Origin: an uncultured archaeon | Lineage (GTDB): Archaea > Asgardarchaeota > Jordiarchaeia > Jordiarchaeales > Jordiarchaeaceae | Length of the DNA stretch: 28,593 nt | Assembly: GCA_964510585.1 (NCBI GenBank) | Contig: CAZECW010000054.1 | Location: 1-28,593, forward strand | Direction of reading: 5' to 3' | Shown: positions 18,367 through 27,401 of the stretch, piece after piece | How positions within the stretch are numbered: the first letter of the stretch is position 1 | Layout of the letters: each line of letters opens with the position of its first letter | Position numbers and translations under genes: made by a program | Notes under the pieces: generated by a model | What the model saw: only the letters and a program-made list of their open reading frames with translations | Told to the model about the DNA's origin: nothing | The model's database searches: none

Positions 18367-19434
18367 TTGGACATAACCAACATTAAGGGTGTAGGACCGG
18401 AAAAAGCCAAAAAACTCATGAATGCCGGCTACAGCACAGTGGAAAGCATCGCCTTCTCCTCACCCAGAGATCTATCCCTAGACTCCGGAATACCAGAAGA
18501 AACCGCCCGAACAATTATCGCCTCCGCCAAGCTAATTATTCGCTCCAAAGAAAACACTAAGGGCGGAAAACTGGTGGAAATCCTCTCCGGTAAAGACGCC
18601 AAAAAAGTCCTGCAAAGCATGGATCACATAACCACCGGAATAAAAGGGCTCGACCGAATATTGGGTGGAGGAATAGAAACCTGTGCAGTAACAGAGTTCT
18701 ATGGACCAGCAAAGGCGGGAAAAACACAGATTTGCCACCAGCTATGCGTCACAGTACAGCTTCCCCGAGAAAAAGGAGGCCTTGAAGCACCAGCCCTCTA
18801 CATAGACACAGAAAGAACAGTCAAATATGACCACATCAAAAGTGTGGCTGAGAGATTCGGCCTGGATCCAGACCTAGCAAGTGACAATGTATTCTACGCC
18901 TACGCTATGAATAGTGAAGCTCTATACGAGCTGGTTCACAAAAATTTGGACGAGGTGGTTCAAAACAGGGGAATCAAACTTGTGGTAGTTGACTGTCTAA
19001 CTGGCCACTTCCGCGCAGAATACTGCGGCAGAGAAAGTCTACCCCTGAGACAACAAAAAATAAACAGAATTATTCACGACCTACTGAGAATTGCGGTGTC
19101 CCACGATTTAGCTGTGGTAGTAACAAACCAAGTGCACTCCCAACCCGACCTGTACGGCAAAAGCGAGAACCCCATAGGCGGACACACAGTAGCCCACGGA
19201 GTCACCTTCAGACTGGGACTGAGCACAAGAAAATACAACATGAGAACTGTAACCGTAGTGGACGCCCCCGCGCTTCCCCCAGACGAAGCCTACTTCGCAA
19301 TAACCTCCAGGGGACTAATTGACATAAACCCCAAGGATTTGAATTCCAAAAGCCCCATCACATTCCCTGGTGAAGGCGAAATAAGAGAAAGAGAAGTAGA
19401 AAGTGTGGAGGAGGCAGAAACCGTTACAGATTAG
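18367..19434 (+). CDS. radA: RadA/Rad51-family recombinase (divergent full-length paralog)
   Basis: N-terminal HhH (IKGVGPEKAKKL), LDRILGGGIET, GKTQICHQL, VQLPREKGGL, YIDTE, LVVVD, FRAEY, RQQK, TNQV, PIGGH. Confidence 0.93.
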   Translation: MDITNIKGVGPEKAKKLMNAGYSTVESIAFSSPRDLSLDSGIPEETARTIIASAKLIIRSKENTKGGKLVEILSGKDAKKVLQSMDHITTGIKGLDRILGGGIETCAVTEFYGPAKAGKTQICHQLCVTVQLPREKGGLEAPALYIDTERTVKYDHIKSVAERFGLDPDLASDNVFYAYAMNSEALYELVHKNLDEVVQNRGIKLVVVDCLTGHFRAEYCGRESLPLRQQKINRIIHDLLRIAVSHDLAVVVTNQVHSQPDLYGKSENPIGGHTVAHGVTFRLGLSTRKYNMRTVTVVDAPALPPDEAYFAITSRGLIDINPKDLNSKSPITFPGEGEIREREVESVEEAETVTD

Positions 19435-19453
19435 AAAATTCCGGTGGTACAGC

Positions 19454-22054
19454 GTGTCTAGACGGGTGATAACATTGACACTACTCTCTCTCATAATTGT
19501 CCTAATGGTTTCCAGCCTCTTTGCAGGTCTCACCACGTCAATCAGTTACCAGTCCAAACCCATAAACGAAGTGAAACCTGTTTACGCTGCCAAATCTGCG
19601 GTGAGTGTTGCCTATCTTACAAATCAATCCACTCCCTTAAAATGGGAGAAATATTTTACAAATGGTTCCAGTCAAGCTAACCTGCAGAATACAATTGGTT
19701 TCCTCTCCTCCCTGGGCACTCGTCACACATCACAGACGGAGTGTAACACTTCTGCAGATTATATTTTTGCAGCTCTTCAATCCTATGGCTACCTGCCCTT
19801 AAGAGACTATTTCTCTGTTATTTGGCAAAATGTGTCCTACATTACCCAAAACATCTACTGTGTTAAGCCCTCCACTTCTCAAGAAATAATCCTTCTTGTC
19901 TGCCATTATGACTCTATAAGAGTCCTAAGAATAGGGGACACGATTTTGGGACTCCAAAACACAAATTGTCCCGGAGCGGTTGACGATGCTGCGGGGGTGG
20001 CGATACTTTTAGAGACCGCCCGACTGCTATATAATGTGAGCCTTGAGAAAACCATTGTTTTCGCTTTTCTGAGCGGAGAGGAGGGAAACAGCACCCAGGA
20101 ACACTGGTTCGGCTCACAGCAACTAGTGACCCAAGGATACCACTTATTCACCACTCAAATTTCAAACATAAAAAGAGTAGTTTACCTAGACACTATTGGA
20201 GAGCTCCCCTACGGCGAGGCAAATGGGCAAATAGTAATATTTTCGGAACCAACACTATGGACACATAAAAGTTCACTTATAGGCGCAGCCACCGATCTCG
20301 GAATAAATATACTTTCTGAAAACGTTCCCCGAGCTAACTCCATTTCCCAAGCTAAAAAGGAATTCTGCTCAGAATGGCACCTACAATCAGTGCTACCCAC
20401 AATAACTATCTCCCAAACTAACTGGACTCTCACCACAAGCGATAGGCTCACCCAACTTGACACCGCCTCCATAATAAGTTACACTCTTATTGAAAATGTA
20501 GCCAAAATTCTCACCGCCTCACTGGTAAGAGAATTCTTCGCACTCCCACCAAGCTCCCCCAGCCATGCGTATGAGTGGAGCGAACTCTTAAAATTCTATT
20601 CAATCGGAGTTACCTTCTTTGAGCAAGACTACATAGACTACTTATCACACCCCAGTTCAAGCGTGGTAATAATTGGACCGGGATTGAACTTTTCAGAAAA
20701 AGAACTCCAAGCCCTAGTCGCCATAAATAAGCCCCTCATATGTACTGGGAACAGTGGTATAGATCTACTTGGAGGCTTAGGCGCACAATTAACCAGCAGT
20801 CCAAGCAACACTAATTACGTTAACCTCTCAAGAGTAGATTTGTTCTACCACCCAATATGGGAAAATGTTGAGGAAAACGTCACCGTTGCAATCAATCATG
20901 GTGAAACAATTCTCATCACCGTTGGAAGCAGCTTTTTCTCATTTCTGGAATACCAGGATAAATGTTGGCTGGGCTGCTATTACGGGCATCCCTCCTCCAA
21001 GTATGTTTTTTACGTGGGGCGGGACAATCCCGCTAATCTCAGCGGCGAAGCAAAACACATTCTTAGTAATCTTGTTTCTTGGTGCTCCAAACAGGAGGAG
21101 TACCATCTGCAGCTTCAACCCTCAAAAATTGTGGGTGGGCAAAAAACAAATCTCACTATGGCTGTGAGAAACGCTCTCAGCTGGGAGGTTGTAGGGGCAG
21201 CCTCTTTTATGGTGAGCATCACCCAGAATGGTGAGCAAATATTTCAAGGTGTTGTGCCAACAATAAATGGTTATTTCACTGTAGAAGTCACACTAAAGGT
21301 GGGAAAATGTGTCCTCTCTGCCTCAAGCGGCATAATTTCTGCAACTAGAGAAGTTGGCGTAATCCCTCCCTTTAACGTTCAAATGTTTTATCCTCCCACC
21401 TCGACTCAGGATGAGTATTTGCTTTTAGCTGTGATGCTAGAGAGCTCATCTTCCCAAGACCAACATCTTCAATTATTCATACCCGAGCTTCGGGTTTATA
21501 CTCAGGTCCATCTTCCTCCAAATGGTTCAGTAATAATATATATTCCCGCAGTCTATACTCCATCGTCTCCCTATGACCAAGGTATTCATCTTTTCACGGC
21601 TATAGTTCAAGGCTATTGTTCAAGCGTTTTAGTCTTCCCGATAGCCATTTCCCCATCACTTAGAAGCACTGTTTTTGGATACGTCCTCCCCTTTGCCGCC
21701 TTACTGGCCTGCAGCATTCTTTCCTACAGAAGAGTATTCCACGTTAAGCCACCGAAGGAGATTCAGCTCAGGGAGGCTAAGAGAAGGGAGAGAAGAAAAT
21801 TCTTTGAGGGACGCATCTTAGAAAATCCAGAAGATGTTGAAATACTGATAAAGTATCTTAGGGAGGCGGGTTTCGTGGAGATGGGTGAAAACCGATTCTA
21901 CGATTCCCAAGCCATAGTTGAGATAAAAAACAAAGAGGAGAACTCCATTGTCAGAATCTTCTCCTCCCAAAGAGATTTCTATGAACATTTACAATTGAAG
22001 TTGGAGGAGTGGGGAAGCCAATCTCAAGGAGGTACTTGGAGTGATGTGGGATGA
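19454..22054 (+). CDS. Membrane-anchored surface protein with M28-peptidase-like domain, GATase-like domain, Ig-like region, C-terminal TM and cytoplasmic tail
   Basis: CHYDS, GAVDDAAG, SGEEG and YLDTIG are M28 motifs. Signal segment RRVITLTLLSLIIVLMVSSLFA after GTG 19454 (GGTGG upstream). TM VFGYVLPFAALLACSILSY. Confidence 0.88.
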   Translation: MSRRVITLTLLSLIIVLMVSSLFAGLTTSISYQSKPINEVKPVYAAKSAVSVAYLTNQSTPLKWEKYFTNGSSQANLQNTIGFLSSLGTRHTSQTECNTSADYIFAALQSYGYLPLRDYFSVIWQNVSYITQNIYCVKPSTSQEIILLVCHYDSIRVLRIGDTILGLQNTNCPGAVDDAAGVAILLETARLLYNVSLEKTIVFAFLSGEEGNSTQEHWFGSQQLVTQGYHLFTTQISNIKRVVYLDTIGELPYGEANGQIVIFSEPTLWTHKSSLIGAATDLGINILSENVPRANSISQAKKEFCSEWHLQSVLPTITISQTNWTLTTSDRLTQLDTASIISYTLIENVAKILTASLVREFFALPPSSPSHAYEWSELLKFYSIGVTFFEQDYIDYLSHPSSSVVIIGPGLNFSEKELQALVAINKPLICTGNSGIDLLGGLGAQLTSSPSNTNYVNLSRVDLFYHPIWENVEENVTVAINHGETILITVGSSFFSFLEYQDKCWLGCYYGHPSSKYVFYVGRDNPANLSGEAKHILSNLVSWCSKQEEYHLQLQPSKIVGGQKTNLTMAVRNALSWEVVGAASFMVSITQNGEQIFQGVVPTINGYFTVEVTLKVGKCVLSASSGIISATREVGVIPPFNVQMFYPPTSTQDEYLLLAVMLESSSSQDQHLQLFIPELRVYTQVHLPPNGSVIIYIPAVYTPSSPYDQGIHLFTAIVQGYCSSVLVFPIAISPSLRSTVFGYVLPFAALLACSILSYRRVFHVKPPKEIQLREAKRRERRKFFEGRILENPEDVEILIKYLREAGFVEMGENRFYDSQAIVEIKNKEENSIVRIFSSQRDFYEHLQLKLEEWGSQSQGGTWSDVG

Positions 22055-22493
22055 AGAAATAGTAGGTGGGATACTAGGCTCTCTACTAACAGATGGAATC
22101 ATACTGCTCGTTGCATTCCTTTTACTGTTCCTAGTTCTCAAAATCATTATGTTGATACTTGGAGCGGAAGAAAACAGGGTGCTTCCCCTACCCTTATCCG
22201 GGGCTCAATGGTCTGAAAAGACTAATCCATATATTCAAATAGCTGAAGCCTTAGAGGAGGGGGATCAGAGAGCCTTACTCTGGTTAATGAGCCGAAACAC
22301 ACTAAGAAGAAGGATTTTTATTGCTCTAAACTCTTTTGCGGTTGATTTGTTTTTGGGCACTGCATCCCTATTATCCGTCCTGAGCATATACCTCAAAATT
22401 AGAGCCCTCCCAGTTCAAGATTGGATTGTAATCATAATGGCAGCGGCGGCCCTTATTCTCATATGCATCTCATATTGGAGGGTAAAAAGTTGA
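22041..22493 (+). CDS. Small membrane protein (about 3 TM)
   Basis: Three hydrophobic segments; the start overlaps the upstream stop and has GGAGG upstream. Confidence 0.8.
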   Translation: MMWDEEIVGGILGSLLTDGIILLVAFLLLFLVLKIIMLILGAEENRVLPLPLSGAQWSEKTNPYIQIAEALEEGDQRALLWLMSRNTLRRRIFIALNSFAVDLFLGTASLLSVLSIYLKIRALPVQDWIVIIMAAAALILICISYWRVKS

Positions 22494-22594: not shown

Positions 22595-23479
22595 GTGTCA
22601 ATTGAAAAAATAAAGGCCAAAGCAAAAAGTGTGAAGCCCGGAGAAGTGGAGTATGAAGAAGAAGTTACATTTGACAGCCCCGCCGCCATTGAGTGGTCTG
22701 ATAGAAACGCCAAAATCTTCAGCCCAATAAATGTCGCCAAGTTCATGGTAGTAATCACCGTCTGCATACTTTCCTACATTGTATCCAATGTTTACTTGTC
22801 CTATCCCTACTGGATAATTACAACTGCTGTTTGCACCTATGCCGCGCTCTGTGCAGTTAGCACCAAGGCAGCCTCACCCTTCCTCAAACTATTAAGTCAC
22901 GGAAAGTGGCCTAACAAAGAAAAGTTTTCACTGGTAAACCCCTTACAGGATTTAACCTTTTTCTTTATGAATGGAGAGGAATCCGTACTAATAATGCGTG
23001 ACAGTTACAAGCTAGCAGCCTACGCTATGATGAAGGTTAAGGAAATTCCCCTAAACATTAGAGGCGACTTCAAATACTTCTTCCGAACACTATACCTGCA
23101 AAAACTACCAGTAATCTATTTCGTAGAGAGCAGCCCGGTATCCGAGAAAATCGTGAAATACTTACCGAACATGGAAGAAAAAAGTCAAAAGTACCTAGCC
23201 AAGAAAGACCCATCACGCAGAAAAACATTTCTCTGGGGAGGAGGAGGCATATGGACAACCCGCATAGTTCTAGGAACCAAAAAAGAAATAATAGCACCAG
23301 TAAGACTTGACAGCTCCATTAAAAAACTGGTTGAAGAAGTGAAAATGAACGCCTTTACCCTAGCCACCGCATTTGAGAACTCCTACCCTCACTGCAAAAT
23401 TGAACCCCTAGTGGGCGAATCCCTCCTAGAAGCTACTAAAGCCATGCTCACTGGAGGAGGAGTATCCCATTTTTTCTAA
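22595..23479 (+). CDS. 2-TM protein; probable N-terminal part of a VirB4/HerA-like protein (joined to the next ORF by a -1 frameshift)
   Basis: TM pair at about aa 48-90 and a soluble alpha/beta region. Ends CAT TTT TTC TAA (slippery T TTT TTC); the -1 frame runs open into the next ORF. Confidence 0.82.
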   Translation: MSIEKIKAKAKSVKPGEVEYEEEVTFDSPAAIEWSDRNAKIFSPINVAKFMVVITVCILSYIVSNVYLSYPYWIITTAVCTYAALCAVSTKAASPFLKLLSHGKWPNKEKFSLVNPLQDLTFFFMNGEESVLIMRDSYKLAAYAMMKVKEIPLNIRGDFKYFFRTLYLQKLPVIYFVESSPVSEKIVKYLPNMEEKSQKYLAKKDPSRRKTFLWGGGGIWTTRIVLGTKKEIIAPVRLDSSIKKLVEEVKMNAFTLATAFENSYPHCKIEPLVGESLLEATKAMLTGGGVSHFF

Positions 23480-23505
23480 CAGGACTGGAGGCGGCTCTAA
23501 CATTC

Positions 23506-25044
23506 GTGGATCTCGCAGATTTCATGTCCAAGGGATTAGTGGTTAAACCAGCAGCAGAATTCATCAGCCCCTCCGTAGATTACGACTTATTGCTGGGAAG
23601 AGTAATTGAAACAGAAGTCTACAAGGAAGATGTGGACGTAGGACTAAAATTGGAGCACTTACACAGAGGCATTATGGTGGCGGGAGGAAGCCAGGATGAG
23701 CGTAATGCCACCAACCTAAAAATCATCTTTGAAGCATCCAAATTCTCGTGGAACTACCTAATGGTGGATACAAAGAATCAACTTAGAAGACTAGTGAAGT
23801 TGAACCCCGAAACACGCGTGTACCCCAGCAAAAGTATATGCATAAATCCTCTCGACCCAGAAGACTCAAGCATTTCCGAATACATTTCCCTGCTGCTCCA
23901 ACTATTCCAAATCCTATGGAACCTCACAGACAGGCAGAGCATCTGTTTAAGTGAAGCATTAAGGAGTGTATACGAAAAATACGAGAATGCCACTCCCACC
24001 CTTGAAGATTTGAGAAACGCTTTAATCACCCAGAGTTCTTCCAAACTTAGATCCCCACAGGAGAGAAGCGAAATAGAAGGAGTGATACGTGGGATAACGG
24101 GTTTACTAGTTTCCGAAGAATCTCTAACAATAAATGGCCGCTCCACAATGCCTTTCAGAGAACTCGCAACCAACCCCACAATTATTGAAATAACATCCAA
24201 AGACCGCCATTTTTCGAGCTTCTTTAAATGTTTAATGATAATAAAGGCTCTAGCTACAGATAAGAAAAGGTATTCAATATTTATTGACGACGCCGATGAG
24301 GTTTTCAAAAACATAAGGTTTGGATGGAAAACGCAACAAGTCTATTTCCAGGAATATTTAACAGGATGGGTGGAAGCCATAAAAAGAATGAAGGTGGGGC
24401 TGCACATTTCATCTAGTTTACCCAGACTAATCTACGATCCCATTCGCCCTCTAATAGAAACCCAAATATTCCATAAATTAATTTCAAGCGAAGACATCGA
24501 CGCAGCGGGAAACTTATTAGGCTTGGAGGAACATGCACCGGGCATACACTCCAACAAAAGGGAGAGACTCTACCAGAAAACCTACCTCAAATACCTAAAG
24601 GAGGGAGAAGCCCTTTTCCGCAGACCAGACCTGCCAACCGGATTCCCCATCAAGTTGCACTACCCCACACTAGTATCTTCCACGTCCCCCTCAGACCAAG
24701 AAATAAAATCTAGACTCCAAGAGCTTTATCCCCCCCAAAACGTTAACCCAAAAGAAAGTTTACCATCTACTACGCTTGAGAGAGATTTGAAAAACGAAAG
24801 CAAACACGCCGCAGAAATACTGCAACTACTTCACGAATACCCCCAACTCTCATCAACAAACATAGTGCTAAGCCTAAAGATGGAGATGGAACCAGAAAAA
24901 ATAAGGTACCTTCTCGAAAAGCTCAAGGAACTAGAATATCTCAGGGAAAGACTGGAAGTCTGGAAATCAAAAACAAAAAGAGTATACTCTCTAACGCTAA
25001 AAGGAGAACAATCCCTAAAAGAATACACAGAATCTAGACATTAA
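23506..25044 (+). CDS. HerA/FtsK/VirB4-like P-loop domain with degenerate Walker A, plus C-terminal winged HTH
   Basis: LLLGRV...LEHLHRGIMVAGG, YLMVDTKNQ, ICINPLDP, PTLEDL, SIFIDDAD, IETQIFHKL, LKEGEAL follow the HerA/DUF87-type motif order. Walker A reads GGSQDERN. wHTH LSSTNIVLSLKM...VYSLTLKG. Confidence 0.8.
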   Translation: MDLADFMSKGLVVKPAAEFISPSVDYDLLLGRVIETEVYKEDVDVGLKLEHLHRGIMVAGGSQDERNATNLKIIFEASKFSWNYLMVDTKNQLRRLVKLNPETRVYPSKSICINPLDPEDSSISEYISLLLQLFQILWNLTDRQSICLSEALRSVYEKYENATPTLEDLRNALITQSSSKLRSPQERSEIEGVIRGITGLLVSEESLTINGRSTMPFRELATNPTIIEITSKDRHFSSFFKCLMIIKALATDKKRYSIFIDDADEVFKNIRFGWKTQQVYFQEYLTGWVEAIKRMKVGLHISSSLPRLIYDPIRPLIETQIFHKLISSEDIDAAGNLLGLEEHAPGIHSNKRERLYQKTYLKYLKEGEALFRRPDLPTGFPIKLHYPTLVSSTSPSDQEIKSRLQELYPPQNVNPKESLPSTTLERDLKNESKHAAEILQLLHEYPQLSSTNIVLSLKMEMEPEKIRYLLEKLKELEYLRERLEVWKSKTKRVYSLTLKGEQSLKEYTESRH

Positions 25045-26630: not shown

Positions 26631-27401
26631 TCAATAATAGATAATGCTTGAGTCGGGCTCTATCTCATAATATAGTTTTGTGGTGTCAATTGGAAATTGA
26701 GCCTTTATCACCTGCATATAGTTTCTTAATTTTTCCCCTGCCTCCTCCACTTTAAATTGAATTATTACATCGCTAAGCTGAGATAATATGGCCCTAAACT
26801 TGGTTTCATGGGCGTCCATATTTAACATGTAGAAGGCCAGATCACCGTAATGCTTGTGGAAACGTATGACTCGCCTATAAAATCTTGCAACTTCCTCCTC
26901 GGGTACTCCCATAGAGAGATCGGTTAAGCTTCCAAATATCCAAATAGCCCACGAGTCTAAAGGCAAGCTTTCTCTAACACTCCTCATAAGGGAAAACAAC
27001 CTGTCAGTGTCAAAGGGTTCATCCAGAGTATAAACCTCTTTCCGCAAATTTAATCTTTCATTAGGGGGCTGGCCAGAAAAACAGTCAATAATCCTTATCC
27101 TATCAAAATTAATAAACTCCTTACTACTTTGAACCCCTTCTCCCTTGCGCCAAGAAGACGTCGCCATAAAAAGTAAATCCTCAACTGGCCTAGCATAGTC
27201 CACTATTATCAAATAGAATTCCCTTTTGCTTGCGATGGGCATACTTAAGTTTATAAACTCCCATTGTCTGAAACCGGTCTGATGAAGTATTAAAACTATG
27301 GAATTACTTAAAATTCCCCCACCTAAACGCTCATCTAACTTTTGTATGCCGGTACTAATCAAACCATACTTAATTGAATTGCTACTTGAAGAAATGTCCA
27401 A
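26631..27401 (-). CDS. KaiC/RAD55-like RecA-fold protein with degenerate Walker A
   Basis: ISTGIQKLDERLGGGI, then HQTGFRQW where GxxGxGKT is expected; IIDCFS, LSDVIIQF, YMQVIKA. Confidence 0.8.
   Translation of the reverse strand: MDISSSSNSIKYGLISTGIQKLDERLGGGILSNSIVLILHQTGFRQWEFINLSMPIASKREFYLIIVDYARPVEDLLFMATSSWRKGEGVQSSKEFINFDRIRIIDCFSGQPPNERLNLRKEVYTLDEPFDTDRLFSLMRSVRESLPLDSWAIWIFGSLTDLSMGVPEEEVARFYRRVIRFHKHYGDLAFYMLNMDAHETKFRAILSQLSDVIIQFKVEEAGEKLRNYMQVIKAQFPIDTTKLYYEIEPDSSIIYY

Follow-up and report, generated by a model that had tools for sequence, protein, structure and literature searches.

Programmed shifting of ribosomes into the -1 frame (-1 PRF) is well known in viruses, insertion sequence (IS) elements and a few bacterial genes. 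The dnaX and IS3/IS1 cassettes slip on A AAA AAG or A AAA AAA with tRNA-Lys, and the shifted product of dnaX is the short one. For these bacterial -1 frameshift cassettes we refer to the review PMC5009743. Within the Archaea, a 2021 review (PMC8211752) gives the alpha-L-fucosidase gene fucA1 of Saccharolobus solfataricus as the sole reported cellular case and also cites predicted cases in haloarchaeal tailed viruses. The fucA1 gene carries the heptamer A AAA AAT and is split in only two S. solfataricus strains, being intact in other Sulfolobales (PMC8211752; PMC1616953). Here we analyze a pair of adjoining open reading frames (ORFs), A and B, of an uncultured Asgard archaeon. The window, i.e., the whole stretch of DNA analyzed (28,593 nucleotides), is a complete 28.6-kb contig (C54) of a metagenome-assembled genome (MAG) of 3.78 Mb that is 96% complete. 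Its genus falls in the Asgard class Jordarchaeia, judged by the names carried by close homologs (Jordarchaeaceae, 'Freyrarchaeum guaymaensis'). On the best reading of this locus, and in our judgment a likely one, the two frames would be joined by programmed -1 ribosomal frameshifting at U UUU UUC.

ORF-A (22595-23479, plus strand, zero frame) encodes 294 amino acids with N-terminal hydrophobic helices and an alpha/beta domain. Its 3' end reads CAT (23468-70) TTT TTC (23474-76) TAA (23477-79). The slippery heptamer T TTT TTC (23470-23476, plus strand) stands in the X XXY YYZ register of the ORF-A frame and abuts the ORF-A stop (23477-23479, plus strand). ORF-B is annotated at 23506-25044 (plus strand) with a GTG start and 512 amino acids, in the -1 frame relative to ORF-A. 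This frame is open from 23440, where its translation reads ...SIPFFLTGLEAALTFVDL..., and the coding region of part B extends from the Leu codon CTA at 23476-78 to the stop (23476-25044, plus strand, -1 frame, 522 codons). In this region, an N-terminal strand plus helices are followed by a VirB4/HerA-like domain, whose P-loop is degenerate, and by a winged helix at the C-terminus. An earlier note on this DNA had placed T TTT TTC directly before the ORF-A stop and had joined ORF-A through the -1 frame to 23506-25044 in an 816-amino-acid fusion, all of which is found in the sequence. The trans-frame product would count 294 + 522 = 816 amino acids, with the predicted junction ...GGGVSHFF-LTGLEA..., the predicted junction peptide ...GGGVSHFFLTGLEAALTF... 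and the predicted junction-spanning sequence ...GGGVSHFF-LTGLEAALTFVDLADFMSK.

It is very improbable that the split reflects a wrong consensus in the homopolymer or a recent inactivating frameshift. Both typically arise at homopolymer runs, and MAG assemblies can carry such errors. However, the T-run length, which the earlier note had singled out as a check, is 6 T and not 7 in the contigs of four independent runs from four studies, with no indel across 23300-23700. Three of these contigs are near-identical to the window and one is ~95% identical; the runs containing the window sequence originate from hot-spring metagenomes, and two of them, labelled 'metatranscriptomic', are probably DNA and were used as contigs only; the run searches listed no RNA data set containing it. 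The T6 run is also present in a one-contig genome of the same genus. Moreover, the same junction occurs in more than 20 independent assemblies from at least four clades, and B stays open for 520-550 codons with substitutions dominated by third positions. Assembly or homopolymer error is ruled out by the agreement on T6 across these runs and assemblies, and a pseudogene or recent decay by the purifying selection on B together with the independent assemblies.

Within the genus, the junction is uniform. We compared 14 distinct ortholog junctions drawn from genus genomes, metagenome contigs and public assemblies, and all of them are of equal length and read [C/A/T]AT TTT TTC T[A/G]A C. B homologs at 72-98% identity are all called at ~505-522 amino acids (apart from one 450-amino-acid call) and none is fused; the comparison of orthologs suggested by the earlier note thus returns, for the genus, only split genes with a conserved heptamer. 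Across the heptamer and stop (23470-23479) just one column in ten varies among the 14 orthologs, namely TAA/TGA. All heptamer lineages have either TAA or TGA here, a variation that corresponds to CTA/CTG, synonymous Leu codons, in the -1 frame. The flanks behave differently: only 8 of 90 codons with an invariant amino acid are also nucleotide-invariant, and the third base is kept in only 4 of 14 invariant two-fold codons ending in Y. In addition, Phe-Phe dipeptides in the genome of the window use the four codon pairs about equally. Since the flanking codons vary and no Phe-Phe codon pair is favored, the fixed TTT TTC is unexplained by the protein.

The codon periodicity of substitutions follows frame A up to the heptamer and, from exactly this point on, frame B. 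Upstream of it, the variable columns of the 14 orthologs are distributed over codon positions 1/2/3 of the A frame as 26/14/70. In 23480-23524, which covers the supposed intergenic stretch and the first codons of annotated ORF-B, the distribution in the B frame is 7/3/11, and further downstream it is 24/17/60 in the same frame. The first residues of B read from 23476, L-T-G-L-E, align with the N-termini of distant homologs; T2, G3 and E5 of this L-T-G-x-E sequence are invariant across clades at 28-33% identity, and G3 and E5 are still invariant in the wider alignment. The B frame of the window contains no ATG, GTG or TTG in 23440-23505. Neither does one of these codons stand in the B frame upstream of the conserved L-T-G-x-E in any other heptamer lineage, the more distant relatives G127, G103, G105, G119, L064 and G122 included, and G103, G105 and G119 lack them throughout their first 30 B codons. 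The GTG formerly taken as the start of ORF-B (23506-23508, plus strand) is not conserved: its equivalent is GTA in L003, L010 and L028 and GTT in L031, all of which still encode Val when read in the -1 frame. The near-identical strain of run X2 differs from the window at only one of 401 bases, by a G>T change at 23508 (GTG to GTT) that destroys the supposed start and stays synonymous (Val) in the -1 frame. The earlier note had rated this GTG poorly suited to independent initiation, the GGAGG at 23487-91 lying 14 nt before it, and the relatives bear this out. As a start of B, GTG 23506 is rejected on account of the GTA or GTT found in relatives and in strain X2.

These observations bear directly on the possibility that B is translated separately, either by reinitiation at the A stop on the CUA/CUG at 23476-78 or from a start at GTG 23506 or ATG 23525, so as to yield two subunits. 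We regard this as improbable. Distinct coupled genes do exist in sister lineages (an ATGA overlap in L012, an ATG in Baldrarchaeota-type loci, and start codons in L013 and L015), and ATG 23525 is conserved in the genus. However, CUA is two positions away from AUG, GTG 23506 is unconserved, and a start at ATG 23525 would lose 16 family-conserved residues that are under B-frame codon constraint. Furthermore, no canonical start is available within the first 30 B codons of G103, G105 and G119, and separate translation leaves both the nucleotide conservation of the heptamer and the clade-specific stem-loops described below unexplained.

The family also contains unsplit members. When the B alignment was used as a profile in an exhaustive search, 1563 matches were obtained, many of which are single-ORF proteins of 750-850 amino acids in which B is aligned from residue 250-310 to the end; their C-terminal 500 amino acids match B from profile position 1. 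Source names on these homologs include Thor-, Loki- and Helarchaeota. ORF-A corresponds to their N-terminal third: an HHalign comparison of the A alignment with the alignment of fused proteins gave a probability of 99.7% and an E-value of 7e-27, with A 125-289 matching residues 108-271 of the fused homolog P0025. Across the junction the alignment is free of gaps (window G-V-S-H-F-F/L-T-G-L-E, P0025 A-R-P-S-F-Y/L-S-G-E-E, the slash marking the junction). The trans-frame product thus has contiguous single-ORF counterparts in the same register across the junction. Judged by these alignments, ORF-A and ORF-B are two parts of one ancestral gene of ~800 codons. In line with the ortholog comparison proposed in the earlier note, single-ORF forms are confined to distant lineages that lack the heptamer, and their register is exactly that of the -1 product. 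A third architecture (family f20, e.g., G216:C56:82297-83697) comprises proteins of ~1250-1300 amino acids with a B-like domain at residues 540-1050 and is often met with in a large Asgard family (28 of 135 genomes).

The family was found in 89 of 400 genomes of the phylum, and open-frame lengths divide it into split members of 530-570 codons and fused members of 780-970 codons. The identical heptamer plus stop recurs in at least three further Asgard clades at ~30% protein identity. The junction reads CGT TTT TTC TAA C in G127, AAT TTT TTC TGA C in G103 and G105, CAT TTT TTC TAA C in G119 and CGT TTT TTC TGA TG in a Helarchaeota contig (L064), while G122 has GCT TTT TTT TGA, i.e., T TTT TTT TGA with a T8 run. 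In each of these, A ends in ...FF before its stop and B resumes as FFL(T/S)G.E in the -1 frame. In a tree of the B domain (53 rows), the heptamer clades are scattered among the fused ones, and no fewer than seven state changes are required. Either an old cassette has reverted several times, or a T-rich Phe-Phe-Leu junction has repeatedly been split at the same run.

In lineages without the frameshift form, the gene is fused or B is provided with a start codon, and the heptamer is missing from most of these lineages. The start-codon solutions differ. In the sister family, L012 has an ATGA overlap whose ATG is aligned to the CTA of the window; in Baldrarchaeota-type loci the B start ATG lies 31 nt upstream of the A stop; and in L013 and L015 the A stop is followed by GGTGG-N-ATG for B. 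Among these start-codon lineages the heptamer is lost except in L012, which keeps T TTT TTA. In the sister family (L012:1440-1470 in G005, L023, L024), T TTT TTA stands directly before the ATGA overlap and B starts with MTGAEL. There is no downstream stem-loop in this family (z ~0). In sequence, the L012-type junction seems to stand midway between the frameshift form and the start-codon form. One and the same junction would evolve between a fused state, a frameshifted state and a split state in which B has a start codon.

A further element of the cassette lies downstream of the heptamer. For each lineage, the 48 nt after the heptamer were folded and z-scored. Heptamer lineages outside the subclade of the window, with the exception of L017, have stems of 9-16 bp that start 3-8 nt downstream, with z between -1.8 and -4.5 (G122 -4.5, G103 -4.1, G127 -3.4, L064 -3.4, G119 -3.2, genus members -1.8 to -3.0). 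Of the 14 controls, i.e., fused lineages or lineages with a B start, 13 fall in the z range from -1.2 to +1.5, the remaining one being at -2.4. The 3' arms of the stems lie in different codons and the loop sizes differ from 4 to ~18 nt; because of these differences among clades, the structure appears to be conserved in place and not in sequence. The last control, L053 (G332, a fused Thorarchaeota-type gene), has a stem of at least 9 bp (CAGCUGGAU.../...GUCCAGCUG) at the junction-equivalent position (z -2.4) where no frameshift is needed, and this stem may be due to chance or be a relic. In the window itself, a 5-bp hairpin, TGGAG (23486-90)-GCGG-CTCTA (23495-99), occupies 23486-23499 on the plus strand and starts 9 nt after the heptamer. 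By sequence comparison, it corresponds, in degraded form, to the 9-bp tetraloop hairpin of most genus members; the hairpins of L010 and L028 reach -14 to -15 kcal/mol with z about -3.3.

A possible second stimulator is found on the other side. The GGAGGAGGAG run (23453-23462, plus strand) is made up of Gly-Gly-Gly codons and ends 7 nt upstream of the heptamer, and its most perfect form is found in the subclade of the window; a mutated form of it would read GGTGGTGGTG. As an idea only, this run might act as a candidate Shine-Dalgarno-like (SD-like) stimulator that perhaps offsets the weak hairpin.

Several observations weigh against frameshifting. In-frame T TTT TTC is common, with 92 cases in the ORFs of at least 150 amino acids of this genome; the heptamer alone is not a strong signal, and its weight comes from position, context and conservation. 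The hairpin of the window, already called weak in the earlier note, amounts to -6.5 kcal/mol with z -0.7. In the structure comparison the window and its three closest relatives, as well as L017, stand apart from the other heptamer lineages with z of 0 to -0.6 and a stem reduced to 5-6 bp, the hairpin of the window being the weakest. Covariation in the genus hairpin is no better than in shuffles and is not significant. The GGAGGAGGAG run is only partly kept in relatives (GGTGGTGGAG, GGTGGGGGCG) and not strictly conserved. A possible B start is present at or next to the junction in three heptamer lineages (ATG in L012 and L064, TTG in G122), and with such starts coupled reinitiation would be used, or at least possible, in these relatives. 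The support for frameshifting is wholly comparative. Finally, the site is homopolymeric, and the product of transcriptional slippage would be indistinguishable by sequence from the ribosomal one.

With transcriptional slippage, RNA polymerase would insert an extra U in the U6 run and bring A and B into one frame, with an identical product. The T8 run of G122 is a place where such slippage is more plausible. Efficient transcriptional slippage, as in bacteria and IS elements, usually needs runs of ~8-9 or longer, whereas the run here is exactly 6 T in most lineages and its seventh base, C, is conserved. The X XXY YYZ register in the A frame and a stem-loop that lies 4-8 nt downstream in each clade, and not upstream, also speak for stimulation of the ribosomal type. 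We therefore consider transcriptional slippage unlikely, and we infer that the ribosome rather than RNA polymerase is the agent of the shift; the efficiency of the shift and any role of the product of A alone are matters of inference in the same way.

Programmed -1 ribosomal frameshifting, as the earlier note had proposed, is supported by the conservation of the heptamer, the switch of coding frame, the missing start of B and the register with single-ORF homologs. Taken as a comparative signature, the combination of heptamer, stop, stem-loop in related lineages, switch of constraint between frames and register with unsplit homologs is textbook and unusually strong. A ribosome translating the A mRNA would slip back by one base at U UUU UUC (23470-23476). 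One route would be the tandem slippage of two tRNA-Phe. The other would be slippage in the P site during slow termination, with the stop codon still standing in the A site, which is a possible route because the codon after the heptamer is a stop. After the slip, reading would resume with CUA ACA GGA... and lead to the 816-amino-acid protein. Ribosomes that do not slip would end at UAA and release the 294-amino-acid membrane part. In this genus, B would be made only through slippage.

Insight into the nature of the product comes from an AlphaFold (AF2) model, which was made for the fused homolog P0025 and not for the protein of the window (30-sequence alignment, mean pLDDT 83.5). The model consists of N-terminal helices plus an alpha/beta domain, the junction residues forming a beta-strand followed by two helices, and then a low-confidence linker, a VirB4-like domain and a terminal winged helix. 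Residues 301-694 match the VirB4 C-domain (4ag5) with Z 29.2 and an rmsd of 3.6 A over 341 residues; other matches are DndH-C (Z 28.2), HerA (4d2i; Z 25.3) and TrwB (Z 23). The region of P0025 with this RecA-like VirB4/HerA-type fold is homologous to B. The VirB4-like domain begins 23-35 residues past the junction, and as the junction precedes the domain boundary by this distance, the N-terminus of B appears in the model to be part of the A fold. Full-length VirB4 (TrwK) can be aligned to model residues 93-702, but with an rmsd of ~16 A. Pfam scans of A, B and the fused homologs gave no family match, the fused homologs having only sub-threshold winged-helix-turn-helix (wHTH) matches, and DUF87 is carried only by very distant matches of the B profile search.

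The Walker A sequence GxxxxGK[ST] is absent from the window, which has VAGGSQDERNAT (GGSQDERN), and from the family, whose consensus is GGxxxxR. Because the P-loop thus lacks Lys-Ser/Thr in both, the protein is probably a pseudo-ATPase and not an active ATPase. The VirB4/HerA-like label of the earlier note consequently stands at the level of the fold, through the model of the homolog, whereas the P-loop is dead. From the model, the A-B product is probably a VirB4/HerA-like pseudo-ATPase that is anchored in the membrane and ends in a winged helix (wHTH). It shares its fold (model residues 301-694) with VirB4/TrwK, HerA, TrwB and DndH-C, and resembles VirB3-VirB4 in its total of ~800 amino acids with an N-terminal membrane part. 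Unlike P-loop ATPases of the FtsK/HerA type, it is without a Walker A Lys-Ser/Thr and a Pfam family match and has an extra C-terminal winged helix. The ATPase CedB of archaeal Ced/Ted DNA import belongs to a related system (PMC9905601, PMC11868833). No genes for type IV secretion system (T4SS) or Ced partners were found adjoining the A-B gene pair.

In the window, A and B close a module of four genes that starts with a gene for a large M28-peptidase-like protein (19403-22054, plus strand, Pfam M28 match), followed by a gene for a 150-amino-acid protein (22041-22493, plus strand) upstream of ORF-A. This order (M28-peptidase-like, ~150-amino-acid protein, A, B) is kept in L002, L003, L029 and the P0179 contig, and the gene coordinates of the latter place A and B in the -1 relation. 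Directly upstream of the module of the window lies a full-length RadA (18367-19434; Pfam Rad51, 2e-71), and downstream a KaiC/RadB-like fragment match is found at 26631-27401 on the minus strand. In several lineages (L005, L033, L064) the module adjoins a Hel308-like helicase, a RadA paralog or an XPG/FEN1-like gene. The neighboring genes suggest a membrane module tied to DNA handling. On the genome of the window, aragorn listed only 5 tRNAs.

More broadly, and tentatively, the cassette may be an ancient, selected recoding switch of Asgard archaea, whose efficiency would set the ratio of A to A-B, and the first conserved cellular -1 PRF of Archaea; we consider this possible without yet leaning toward it. 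If true, the cassette would span Jordarchaeia, lineages resembling Helarchaeota and at least two more families, and the ratio would be that between A as a free membrane part and the full-length VirB4-like pseudo-ATPase in a membrane assembly beside RadA, Hel308 and FEN1-type genes. As both slipping tRNAs would be tRNA-Phe, temperature or the wyosine modification of tRNA-Phe could influence this ratio, a speculation by analogy with eukaryotes. Full-text literature searches for such a frameshift in an Asgard cellular gene returned no paper on it, only an IS982 paper and unrelated work. With its recurrence in several Asgard lineages, the site would be the first cellular -1 frameshift of Archaea to be described as conserved in evolution. 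Asgard archaea are the closest prokaryotic relatives of eukaryotes, and the junction would offer a natural system in which to study what archaeal and proto-eukaryotic ribosomes do at -1 signals. The analysis also corrects the annotation of B, which has been called with arbitrary internal starts at the loss of up to ~30 conserved residues.

Among known arrangements, ATGA-type coupled gene pairs show the same layout at the same junction in L012 (...TTT TTA TGA with ATG) and in G122/L064. In contrast to such pairs, the genus of the window, G103/G105/G119 and G127 are without a start codon at or near the overlap. The parallel with fucA1 is close in its elements: two ORFs in the -1 relation, a heptamer of the X XXY YYZ type, a putative stem-loop downstream of it and a full-length product with counterparts among unsplit homologs. 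Unlike the strain-specific fucA1 split, however, the Asgard site is genus-wide and recurs in several clades, its heptamer U UUU UUC directly precedes the zero-frame stop, and the two proteins are unrelated. With dnaX (tau/gamma) and the orfA-orfB pairs of IS3/IS1 the cassette has in common the heptamer, an optional upstream SD-like element, a candidate downstream stem-loop and two products predicted per mRNA. It differs from both in that slippage would take place with tRNA-Phe and in an Asgard archaeon, and from dnaX in that the shifted product would be the full-length protein.

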